In this document: positions 35,613-38,312 of the stretch, in pieces
Position numbering within the stretch: position 1 is the first letter of the stretch
Layout of the letters: each line of letters starts with the position of its first letter
NCBI GenBank assembly: GCA_043825985.1
Contig: JBDRRB010000072.1
Coordinates: 1-44,317 of the forward strand
DNA: 44,317 nucleotides
DNA from: a bacterium
GTDB lineage: Bacteria; Patescibacteriota; Patescibacteriia; SG8-24
Direction of reading: 5' to 3'
Made by a program: the position numbers and the translations under genes
Notes under the pieces: model-generated
Told to the model about the DNA's origin: nothing
The model's input: the letters and a program-made list of their open reading frames with translations, nothing else
The model's database searches: none

Positions 35613-35734
35613 GCGGATTCTGGACGGGATGCAGTGCGTCCGACTGGACTGAGCGACGACGTGAGGCGTACTGAAAGGTACGGCGAACTAGGAGCGAGGG
35701 AAGTCGGATGTAATGCACCCGGCTCAGGATTCGC
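35613..35734 (+). repeat. Dispersed long-hairpin element, copy B
   Basis: gcggattctgg/tcaggattcgc outer stem, ccgact-GGA...GGA-agtcgg, and apical gagg-cgtac-tgaaag-gtacg. Confidence 0.85.
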
Positions 35735-35743
35735 ATGAAAACC

Positions 35744-35780
35744 AAAAGCCGCCGGGCACGCTATATGCCCGACGGCTTTT
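35744..35780. terminator. Bidirectional terminator downstream of fusA
   Basis: aaaagccg-ccgggca...tgcccg-acggctttt with U tracts on both strands. Confidence 0.7.
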
Positions 35781-35809
35781 TCGTTTCTACCAATCACCTG
35801 AGCAAATCC

Positions 35810-35839
35810 CCCAACAGCTTTCGTGACGAGATGAAGCGT
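35810..35839 (+). repeat. Truncated left arm of the hairpin element (30-bp near-duplicate of 35878-35907)
   Basis: cccaacagc(t/c)ttcgtgacgagatgaagcgt; 29 of 30 bases identical. Confidence 0.85.
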
Positions 35840-35880
35840 GTCTGGACGAAGTGAGTTTCGCTGCGGGACGAAGATCTCCC

Positions 35881-36007
35881 AACAGCCTTCGTGACGAGAT
35901 GAAGCGTACCTTGCTGGACTGAACTGCGACGCGAAGTCCGGTCACACGACCGGACCGAGCTAGCAGTGAGGGAAGCGAGGTGCGATTCGCTCGTCACGAG
36001 AGCTGTT
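35881..36007 (+). repeat. Dispersed long-hairpin element, copy C (overlaps the fusA stop codon)
   Basis: aacagc/gctgtt, tcgtgacgag/ctcgtcacga, ccttgct-GGA...GGA-agcgagg, and apical gtccggtc-acac-gaccggac. Confidence 0.88.
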
Positions 36008-38084
36008 ACTTCTTGCCTTCCTTGATCTGCTCGGAGACGCTGTTCGGCACCTCGTCGTAGTGGCTGAACTCCATCGAGTACGAGGCCCGACCCTGGGTCA
36101 TGGACCGCAGCTGTGTGGCGTAGCCGAACATCTCGGACAGCGGCACGGTCGCGTCGACGACCTTGGCGTTGCCGCGGTCGCGCATCTCCTTGATCTGGCC
36201 GCGCTTCGACGACAGGTCGCCGATCACGTCGCCCATGAAGTCCTCGGGAGTGATCACCTCGACGCTCATGAGCGGTTCGAGGATGACCGGACTGGCCTTG
36301 CGGCAGCCTTCCTGGAAGGCCATCGAGGCGGCCACCTTGAAGGCGACCTCGCTCGAGTCGACGTCGTGGTAGGTTCCGTCGTACAGCTCAACCTCGATGT
36401 CGACCAGCGGGTAGCCGGCCACCACGCCCTTGTCCATCGACTCGCGGCAGCCCTTCTCGATGGCCGGGATGAACTCGCGCGGGATGACGCCGCCCTTGAT
36501 CTCGTCCTTGAAGACGAAACCGGTCCCCTTCTCCTCAGTCGGCCGGACGCGCAGGTAGCAGTGTCCGTACTGTCCGCGGCCGCCGGACTGCTTGATGTAC
36601 TTGCCCTCGGCTTCGGCCGGCTGGCGAATGGTCTCGCGGTAGGCCACCTGCGGCTTGCCGACGTTGCACTCGACCTTGAACTCGCGCCGCATGCGGTCGA
36701 CGATGATGTCGAGATGCAGCTCGCCCATGCCGGAGATGATGGTCTGCAGGGTCTCGGAGTCGGTGCGCACGCGGAAGGTCGGATCCTCCTCGGCCAGCTT
36801 GAGCAGGGCCGCGTCCATCTTCTCCTGGTCGACCTTGGTCTTCGGCTCGACGGCGAGCGAGATGACCGGCTCGGGGAAGGTCATCTTCTCGAGCACGATC
36901 GGGTTCTTCTCGTCGCACAGCGTGTCGCCGGTGAAGGTCTTCTTGAAGCCCACGGCGGCGGCGATGTCGCCGGCCATGATCTCGTCCACGTCCTCACGCG
37001 AGTTGGCGTGCAGGCGAACGATCCGGCCGACGCGCTCGCGGTCGCCGGTCGTCGTGTTCAGCACGTAGCTGCCGGCCCTGATCACGCCGGAGTAGACGCG
37101 GAAGAAGCACAGCTTGCCGACGAACGGGTCGGCCGCGACCTTGAAGGCCAGCGCGGCCAGCGGTTCGGCGTCGTCGGTCTTGCGCAGGAGCTCCTTCTCC
37201 GGATGGTCCGGGTCGGTGCCCTTGACCGGCGGGACGTCGAGCGGCGACGGCAGGTAGTCGTTGACCGCATCGAGCAGCTTCTGCACGCCCTTGTTCTTGA
37301 GGGCCGTGCCGCACAGCACCGGGACGATGTCCAGGCTGATGGTCGCCTTGCGCAGGACGCGCTTCAGGTCGGCCTCCGGGATCTCCTCCCCGGCCAGGTA
37401 CTTGTTCATCATCTCCTCGTCGTTCTCGACGATCTTCTCGAGCAGCTTGCTCCGCCATTCCTGGGCCGTGGCCAGCATGTCCTCCGGCACGTCCGTCTCC
37501 TCCACGTCCCGGCCGAGGTCATCCTTATATATGAAGGCGCGCATCTTGAGCAGGTCGACGATGCCGGCGAAGTTGCTCTCGGCGCCGATCGGCAGCTGCA
37601 GCGGATAGGCGTTCGGCGTCAGGCGCTCGTGGATCGACCTCAGGTCGGCGTAGAAGTCCGCGCCGGTCCGGTCCAGCTTGTTGATGAAGCACATCCGCGG
37701 CACCTCGAAGTCGTCGGCGTAGTGCCAGTTGGTCTCGGACTGCGGCTCGACTCCGGCCACGCCGTCGAAGATGACGACGGCGCTGTCCAGCACGCGCAGG
37801 GACCGCTTGACCTCGACGGTGAAGTCGATGTGTCCGGGAGTGTCGATGATGTTGATCTGATGGTCCTTCCAGAAGCAGGTCGTGGCGGCGGCGGTGATGG
37901 TGATGCCGCGCTCGCGCTCCTGCTCCATCCAGTCCATCTCGGCCGCGCCCTCATGCACCTCGCCGATCTTGTGCTTCTTGCCGGTATAGAAAAGGATGCG
38001 CTCCGAGACGGTGGTCTTTCCGGCGTCGATGTGGGCGATGATGCCGATGTTGCGTATTTTCTCTAGCGGAAATTGCCTAGGCAT
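36006..38084 (-). CDS. fusA: Elongation factor G
   Basis: [35 protein letters not shown] and [10 protein letters not shown]. Confidence 0.99.
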
Positions 38085-38190
38085 AGTTTGAATGATTGAT
38101 GGTCGACATTCCTTTTTCCCTCAGACAACTACAGATGCGGTCCGGAAATTTCTGGTCACTGTTGAAAAACAAGGATGTCCGTGGGTGACA

Positions 38191-38312
38191 GCGGGTTCTG
38201 AACGGAGTGCGGTGTGCCGACCTGGAGCTCGACGTGACGCGAAACGTACTGAAAGCGTACGTTGAGCTAGCGTCGAGCGAAGGCCGGTGCACCGTGCCCG
38301 TTCAGGTTCCGC
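38191..38312 (+). repeat. Dispersed long-hairpin element, copy A (rpsG-fusA spacer)
   Basis: gcgggttctgaacgg/ccgttcaggttccgc outer stem, cct-GGA-gctcgac/gtcgagc-GA-agg, and apical aacgtac-tgaaagc-gtacgtt. Confidence 0.85.

Follow-up and report, generated by a model that had tools for sequence, protein, structure and literature searches.

Hairpin repeats built around a conserved purine mismatch core: an apparently undescribed family found in a Patescibacteria genome and sporadically in other bacteria and archaea

Introduction

Among described systems, the closest to the element considered here are the REP and BIME sequences and the REPIN-RAYT systems (IS200/IS605-like, Y1 HUH), multi-copy intergenic hairpins that lie at gene 3' ends, have compensated stems, form tandem clusters and are thought to act as folded single strands read by a trans-encoded enzyme. 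Here, we report a genuine family of repeats that fold into hairpins around a conserved purine mismatch core, that are distributed across domains and that do not appear to have been described before. The family is represented by five long imperfect hairpins (copies A, B, C, D and G) in a 44,317-nt stretch of DNA (contig JBDRRB010000072.1, hereafter the window), which is a piece of a 62% G+C genome of the Patescibacteria, or candidate phyla radiation (CPR), from a groundwater metagenome. The family is similar in kind to REPs, but REPs are 20–40 nt long, have a conserved GTAG-type head and occur mainly in Proteobacteria, whereas the elements described here are 60–130 nt long, are built around an internal purine mismatch core, and are found in Actinomycetota, CPR, Spirochaetes, Firmicutes and archaea; the 44-kb window shows no RAYT. 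Nor do the window elements, of 80–127 nt, have the short palindrome with a 5' tetranucleotide that characterizes REPs, their conserved part being internal (CUGGAC...GGGAAG).

A second group of relatives in kind comprises the miniature transposable elements with inverted repeats (MITEs) of the Correia (CREE/NEMIS), ERIC, RUP and BOX types. These are non-autonomous intergenic repeats of 100–150 nt that form long hairpins in transcripts and may supply promoters or processing sites, as the tail of the Nocardia copies described below may also do. What sets them apart is that each family is confined to one genus and has terminal inverted repeats along with short duplications of the target (TA for Correia). 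The window copies have neither shared terminal inverted repeats nor target-site duplications, although archaeal units of the family do duplicate 15–27 nt of their target.

The third comparison is with sites that are recombined as folded single-stranded DNA. Integron attC sites and the attP site of CTX phage are strand-specific imperfect hairpins of 57–150 nt in which structure is read over sequence, folding rebuilds the site and arrays are formed. Unlike attC, the family has no R''/R' boxes (RYYYAAC...GTTRRRY), cassettes, intI or dif-like site, and its arrays hold no open reading frames (ORFs). In the window, only the ends of copy C are faintly similar to attC boxes (CCCAAC...GTTAC), those of A, B, D and G are not, and neither cassettes nor intI were found.

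Results

The five window copies are all on the + strand. Copy A (38191..38312, 122 nt) lies in the rpsG-fusA spacer, 2 nt from the rpsG stop; copy B (35613..35734, 122 nt) is just past the bidirectional terminator of fusA; copy C (35881..36007, 127 nt; inverted repeat I13) overlaps the fusA stop by 2 nt with its 3' arm; copy D (9369..9474, 106 nt), with a degenerate apex, is next to a palindrome that follows a tRNA-Met gene; and copy G (32707..32787, 81 nt; 32712–32782 in the first-pass annotation of this DNA) is found 29 nt after rpsJ. The first-pass annotation had already placed five hairpins at these sites relative to the genes, and its positions were found to be correct. Folding against dinucleotide shuffles bears out their nature as long imperfect hairpins. 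Folded as RNA, the + strand forms a single long hairpin in every copy, at −83.8 (A), −66.9 (B), −80.4 (C), −48.4 (D) and −49.2 (G) kcal/mol; the corresponding z-scores are −9.5, −8.8, −9.3, −2.7 and −7.5; the apex of copy D folds poorly, and its z-score is marginal.

The − strand folds less strongly in all five copies (A −67.4, B −35.9, C −67.2, D −42.0 and G −28.5 kcal/mol), with the largest gap in copy B. DNA folding parameters left the ranking of the two strands unchanged, and with them the − strand of copy B loses its hairpin. Over the window copies, 28 G.U pairs are predicted on the + strand and seven on the − strand. The copies are G-rich on the + strand, whereas the + strand of the window as a whole is C-rich (negative GC skew), and the strand asymmetry is therefore not explained by background composition. 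An excess of G.U pairs would be consistent with a structured RNA module, in which the purine strand would function as a transcript (either a small or antisense RNA or an element of an untranslated region) that binds a protein or RNA via its core, its copies being spread by duplication or hitch-hiking. Outside the window genome, however, the excess is missing: with the U.G pair of the core set aside, the outer stems hold 34 G.U and 31 A.C combinations. The strand specificity proposed in the first-pass annotation thus holds for the window, by both folds and G.U pairs, but its G.U component does not extend to the family.

The core has a fixed order. The outer stem ends with a C-G and a U-A pair and is followed by a 3x2 internal loop, GGA/GA, then by a C-G and a U.G pair, a 2x2 loop, GA/GA, a G-C and a C-G pair, and finally by a variable apex that often repeats the same rhythm of two pairs followed by purine mismatches. 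Its sequence is CUGGACUGAGCG...AGCGAGGGAAG, and the 2x2 loop is a tandem G.A/A.G in a YGAR context. Together, the tandem sheared G.A pairs and the GGA/GA loop would form a distinctive and very stable shape. The full core is present in copies B (35644–35703; this copy also carries a GAAA loop), C (35914–35975) and D (9399–9442). In copy A, a variant core (38222–38282) of the form CUGGA-GCUCGACG...CGUCGAGC-GAAG keeps the first loop, and a regular stem replaces the second. Copy G retains the CUGGA...GAAG loop and is missing the second core loop, an apical GA/GA loop being found 15 pairs higher. Thus, outer stem, both loops and variable apex occur together in B, C and D, and in part in A and G. 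The single layout proposed earlier for the five copies stands as regards covarying stems and a conserved purine core, but its GGA/GGA loop is better described as GGA/GA followed, two pairs on, by tandem GA/GA. Arm sequences vary from copy to copy: all that A, B and D have in common is (C/T)UCUGRACG...C(G)GYUCAG (basal motif UCUGRACGG/CCGKYUCAGR), and the arms of C are wholly different.

Parts of this core recall the tandem sheared G.A motifs of RNA (kink-turn, loop E and C/D-box NC stem). The run G.A, A.G, U.G, C-G occurs in the same order in the NC stem of a C/D-box kink-turn; however, the defining 3-nt bulge of the kink-turn is missing and a second loop, GGA/GA, follows two pairs later. In the alignment, GA/GA is flanked by G-C/C-G and U.G/C-G, with no bulge between. 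Likenesses to the kink-turn, CsrA sites, hammerhead and hairpin ribozymes, the thiamine pyrophosphate (TPP) and signal recognition particle (SRP) RNA motifs and 5S loop E were dropped upon inspection by eye, as order or topology did not fit. The reverse-complemented core resembles a tRNA D-arm (GCUCAGUCC), and the Rfam tRNA model did not match the units.

The search for further copies that the first-pass annotation had suggested was productive. An exact-pattern scan (CTGGACYGARC-N20-50-AGNGAGGGAAG) over 185,579 GTDB species genomes returned at least 119 loci, with about 34 chance matches estimated and a handful of loci without stems. Most of the matches listed are in Nocardia, with several loci per genome; other Actinomycetota among them are Acrocarpospora, Pimelobacter, Nocardioides, Actinophytocola, Rothia and uncultured members of the phylum. 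Further matches listed are in rumen and gut Treponema, Lysinibacillus, Psychrobacillus, Virgibacillus, Halobacillus, Thermogemmatispora and archaea of the Poseidoniales/Methanobacteriota. One metagenome-assembled genome (MAG) of the Uhrbacteria (L075) carries a copy with about 75% identity to copy B, in which the stem changes are compensated. Complementary arms surround the core in nearly all the matches listed, and the purine strand is the better-folding one in 62 of 64 non-redundant cases. The suggested link to deltaproteobacterial palindromes found no support: the one match labeled 'delta proteobacterium' among those listed (L004) has no flanking stem.

Covariation was assessed on a fixed-flank alignment of 49 diverse sequences with a hand-set structure, from which a covariance model was also built; RNAalifold on a MAFFT alignment with long flanks, in which the arms were misaligned, gave no structure. 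All 10 outer-stem pairs show double-sided changes (163 cells, compared with 73 ± 6 in shuffles), and 76.7% of the outer-stem cells are paired, as against 35–53% when the partner is slid by one to three columns. Run over the window, the model recovered copies A–D with E ≤ 2e-9 to one significant figure (A, 2.4e-9; B, 1.1e-15; C, 1.2e-11; D, 1.4e-9) and copy G with E = 0.03, all on the + strand, and nothing else credible. Copy G, counted as a full member in the first-pass annotation, is thus only marginal, its claim resting on the CUGGA...GAAG loop and this E-value. Could the copies be chance palindromes, or unrelated local hairpins without a common origin? The marginal z-score of D and the weak model match of G are what such a view can draw upon, but four copies are recovered by a model built mostly from other phyla, z-scores against shuffles reach −9.5, and covariation is strong over the 49 sequences. 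We give this explanation practically no chance, and for A–D it is already refuted.

Over the first 100 loci, the covariance model found 119 copies. The core appears tightly kept across copies, since the 16 copies that only the model recovered, and that the exact pattern had missed, differ by point changes alone. A variant with T in AGTGAGGGAAG was found at only 15 loci over all GTDB representatives, and a pattern extended by one C at 14 loci in JGI metagenomes; the family is therefore rare and patchy outside Actinomycetota. Neither gathering nor permissive thresholds gave an Rfam 15 match for copies from CPR, Nocardia, Spirochaetes, Firmicutes or archaea. These searches covered the window and 14 loci at gathering score, and the copy regions of the window, Nocardia and Poseidoniales at E ≤ 10, with 16 loci beyond the window overall; all that matched were tRNAs and chance matches well below the family gathering scores. 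Phage genomes queried by BLAST with a CPR copy, and plasmids queried with a Nocardia copy, returned nothing. A pattern scan of IMG/VR gave two AT-rich matches, judged to be chance because they have no flanking stems. Full-text literature searches found no description of the family, although one may exist in literature outside the search.

All five window copies oppose the local genes, and the first-pass annotation had taken an antisense position to translation genes as a property of the family. At 59 other loci (rough gene calls, with the element oriented +), the flanking genes are (+,+) in 22 cases, (+,−) in 19, (−,−) in 13 and (−,+) in five. The element thus tends to lie at gene 3' ends, in no constant sense, and the antisense rule does not hold beyond this genome: among Actinomycetota, the purine strand runs just as often in the direction of the neighbouring genes. 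The position between convergent or tandem genes, with only five of 59 loci divergent, would also fit a role of the mRNA strand, either as a stabilizing 3' or intercistronic hairpin or terminator recruited by the host, or, in Nocardia, as a punctuation cassette of terminator plus promoter. The − strand does still fold strongly for A and C (about −67 kcal/mol). However, the mRNA-strand fold is clearly the worse one here, that of B being lost with DNA parameters and weak as RNA, and no copy is followed by a U-tract. The terminator scan found only 35744–35780 and 35338–35357, and there is no T-run after A, C, D or G. Copies B and D sit just past bidirectional terminators on the gene strand, whereas A, C and G are inside operons. 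Next to B, at a distance of 2 nt, is an intrinsic terminator acting on both strands (35737..35787; inverted repeat I5 and terminator scan); between D and tRNA-Met is a perfect 17-bp palindrome with flanking T and A runs (9481..9517; inverted repeat I6), which looks like a bidirectional terminator. Both are context and lie outside the repeat.

The archaeal copies are the most informative about how the element arrives. In the Poseidoniales/Methanobacteriota, it forms arrays of one to four tandem units of 131–186 nt (L094 2690–2950; L013 1810–2120; L207 1500–2260; L025 2900–3090; L023 5790–5935; L017 1880–2020), and at all six loci it runs convergently with a tRNA gene (for Arg, Glu at two loci, Glu-CUC, Cys and Ala). 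The core of the nearest unit usually lies 64–114 nt from the tRNA 3' end (156 nt in L025). Each unit starts with a 15–27-nt copy of the tRNA 3' end, in which similarity breaks exactly at the border of T-stem and T-loop, and farther along holds that tRNA end once more, inverted (and, in L207, interrupted by 11 nt), so that a unit folded as a single strand would restore the duplex of the target. In one Poseidoniales genome, at least three different tRNA genes have such arrays, the arms of which match the respective tRNA. These arrays appear to be the footprint of site-specific insertion and not of an RNA gene. Integrase-mediated insertion into tRNA genes likewise leaves a second copy of the tRNA 3' end and a junction within the T-arm, but the archaeal units, of only 115–190 nt, have no integrase, casposase or terminal inverted repeats. 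In pairing a tRNA-end copy with an inverted copy, they resemble folded single-strand substrates such as the attC and CTX attP sites of tyrosine recombinases. In the window, copy D shares the archaeal geometry: it is convergent with tRNA-Met (9517–9591, − strand), with 75 nt from core end to tRNA 3' end, and a duplication of the tRNA-Met end was not seen. Casposons target the 3' ends of tRNA genes and of the EF-2 gene; the insertion sites in the window, at the 3' end of fusA (EF-G) and at a tRNA flank, may be a parallel.

Comparison of related loci agrees with the inserted, mobile distribution suggested by the first-pass annotation. None of 80 related CPR loci with the rpsL-rpsG-fusA-tuf-rpsJ-rplC order carries the hairpin element; relatives thus manage without it, which argues against a role of the mRNA strand. 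Of the 230 nt in the rpsG-fusA spacer here, 122 are copy A; among CPR relatives, the median length of this spacer is about 90 nt. (An apparent insertion of about 1 kb in the fusA of relatives proved to be a cross-match between FusA and Tuf.) Three Nocardia species (L030, L107 and L223) carry the element upstream of purB, and the site lacks it in no fewer than 10 other members of the genus and in some 65 other Mycobacteriales. Contigs of a related Lysinibacillus skip a 242-nt block of L. fusiformis that contains the hairpin. Contigs similar to copy B are found in the source metagenome, where read depth over B is five times that of its flanks, and in three other metagenomes.

Three of these sites have further features of their own. 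The Lysinibacillus block (L061 1456–1697) holds an opposite-strand ORF of 16 codons with a strong ribosome-binding site (MMTENQINEREQFELA), and a second locus of the same genome shares the ends of the block, with 41 nt between them. Upstream of purB in Nocardia terrae (L224 1000–1200), the site of the element is taken by a different repeat, of GAAACSCCATCCGAGGGG-like units. On a rumen contig of Spirochaete type (L213 7470–8345; L218 183–868), two same-strand copies flank a small VapC (PIN) toxin and its antitoxin, with a NusG-like gene next; the VapBC-like pair was considered as an associated protein and judged incidental. Clustering of ORFs near the 119 loci yielded only spurious high-GC ORFs and nonribosomal peptide synthetase genes.

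The Nocardia copies are elaborated. They contain an extra small hairpin, CGCCC-GGA-GCGAAGC-GGA-GGGC, and a tail, CAAAT-N-AGACACRG, which in most loci (L030, L223, L008, L011, L069, L074, L087, L106 and others) adjoins the ATG, GTG or TTG of a co-oriented gene. GCGAAGC is an unusually stable DNA hairpin, and mini-hairpins of this type are contained in the Nocardia copies. The tail resembles a −10 box with a spacer. At purB, sites that lack the element have TAGACT separated from GTG by 8 nt, which is the layout of a leaderless promoter; possibly, then, the tail supplies or replaces the −10 box of leaderless genes. In stranded RNA-seq of N. seriolae, summed over all copies, depth at the repeat is about three times that of the flanks in both directions, and flanking transcripts fall off at the element. 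The latter agrees with punctuation by the mRNA strand. Yet a stabilizing hairpin has no need of a 22-nt core that is shared across domains, and, with the terminators and folds discussed above, we regard a role on the mRNA strand as rather unlikely.

The same data bear on the structured-RNA alternative. RNA-seq shows no abundant discrete RNA in N. seriolae, the threefold depth being found in both directions, which argues against an abundant small RNA but is compatible with a role in cis; no RNA run containing the CPR organism was found. In addition to the G.U pairs of the window, this alternative can point to a low-GC Spirochaete class with GNRA-like loops, conserved junction nucleotides and covarying helices, to an intrinsic terminator after B and D on the + strand with a promoter-like site (9/12) 63 nt before D, and to the Nocardia purine strand, co-oriented with the gene whose start codon adjoins the element. 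Against it, A, C and G have no promoter and lie inside operons of the opposite strand, both orientations relative to genes are found, and the tRNA-end duplications and tandem arrays are DNA events. The idea that Treponema copies are part of RNase P RNA was rejected. We consider a structured RNA unlikely, if by no means negligible.

The surroundings of the window copies show further repeats. The 5' arm of copy C has a partial tandem duplicate on the + strand (35806..35865, 60 nt; direct repeat D2, inverted repeat I7) with 77% identity to 35874–35933, and the 18-mer at 35813–35830 within it is also complementary to 35990–36007. The rpsJ-rplC spacer (32213–32811), 600 nt long compared with about 240–330 nt (itself long) in CPR relatives, holds a second hairpin with 21-bp arms at 32407–32453 besides copy G. 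A perfect direct repeat of 78 nt (8406–8483 and 8605–8682, spacing 199 nt) starts within the 3' end of tRNA-Met(+) (8345–8421) and looks like a tandem duplication or an att-like scar of the tRNA end; the 121 nt that separate the two copies are GC-rich and purine-rich and do not belong to the hairpin family.

The window encodes dprA, topA, relA/spoT, parB, parA, three tRNA genes, a NUDIX gene, recO and other genes, after which come the S10 and str operons, with rpsL, rpsG, fusA, tuf, rpsJ and rplC on the minus strand. The best FusA identity, 74%, is to MAGs of Falkowbacteria, Uhrbacteria and other Patescibacteria, and elsewhere in public data the same sequence occurs only in a single short contig and a single run. 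Between fusA and tuf lies a 186-aa ORF (34706–35266, minus strand) without Pfam or NCBIfam match, relatives of which were found by tblastn at the same position in five CPR loci (L135, L145, L155, L168 and L187). On the minus strand at 35300–35612, a short region between copy B and this ORF, enclosed by a promoter-like site at 35327→35300 and by a terminator at 35357→35338, could encode a small hydrophobic peptide (MLFWPLRVVWNLVMLVPLMMF...); it may be an unannotated gene for a small membrane protein.

Discussion

What defines the family is a purine-rich core of non-Watson-Crick pairs held between covarying stems, rather than terminal repeats. We tentatively favour, with somewhat less than even confidence, the reading that it is a non-autonomous, REP/MITE-like mobile hairpin element, recognized in single-stranded form by an enzyme encoded elsewhere. 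One strand would fold back on itself, and a recombinase or transposase encoded elsewhere in the genome would read the shape of the folded core; the favoured substrate would be a hairpin of single-stranded DNA, as for IS200/IS605-RAYT, integron attC and CTX-phage attP. The element would then be copied or inserted into intergenic DNA that adjoins terminators, tRNA genes or gene 3' ends. The CPR genome studied here would have received five copies, all pointing the same way, one beside tRNA-Met and the others within str and S10 operon spacers. Effects on the host may follow, as strong hairpins in mRNA spacers and possibly as a terminator-plus-promoter module in Nocardia. A mobile DNA is suggested by the insertion behaviour, that is, by the absence from all 80 related CPR loci, the purB comparison, the Lysinibacillus indel and the metagenomic contigs similar to copy B. 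That it acts as DNA is suggested by the YGAR context of the tandem G.A pairs, the GCGAAGC mini-hairpins and the preference for the + strand with DNA parameters.

Several observations weigh against such a mobile element. No recombinase, transposase, HUH domain or reverse transcriptase was found by gene and domain scans of the 44-kb window, as the first-pass annotation had also concluded when it placed the enzyme elsewhere, and no recombinase, transposase or reverse transcriptase recurs near copies elsewhere. The window copies show neither target-site duplication nor terminal consensus, and no direct repeats flank A, B or D. Judged from GC skew and the direction of the genes, the + strand of the window serves as template both for the leading strand and for transcription, and is thus the strand least often single-stranded, which is a poor fit to hairpin extrusion from the lagging-strand template. 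Orthologous Nocardia sites share copies across several species; this implies long retention, and fits a retained host function or old insertions. The Spirochaete copies have a 5' hairpin, a C-GNNA-G mini-hairpin and conserved unpaired junction nucleotides, features typical of functional RNA. Finally, the pattern used to collect the loci fixes the core, so that the invariance of the core is partly built in. Mobility, a structured RNA and punctuation of mRNA are not mutually exclusive.

A more specific proposal starts from the archaeal units. The tandem-G.A core could be the recognition or active module of an undescribed bacterial and archaeal mobility system, in which an arm complementary to the target selects the insertion site by base pairing in the folded single strand. 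We regard this as improbable; if true, the family would represent a miniature insertion element that carries its own guide and is perhaps partly self-acting. Whatever the mechanism, the archaeal arms that match the adjacent tRNA offer a concrete handle on target choice. A 22-nt core that is nearly unchanged from Nocardia to CPR to marine archaea, within an element of 60–190 nt that has no genes, implies either a widespread unknown enzyme or the horizontal spread of a tiny selfish element. For annotation, the elements explain oversized spacers in the compact operons of CPR, and in Nocardia they may supply the promoters of leaderless genes.

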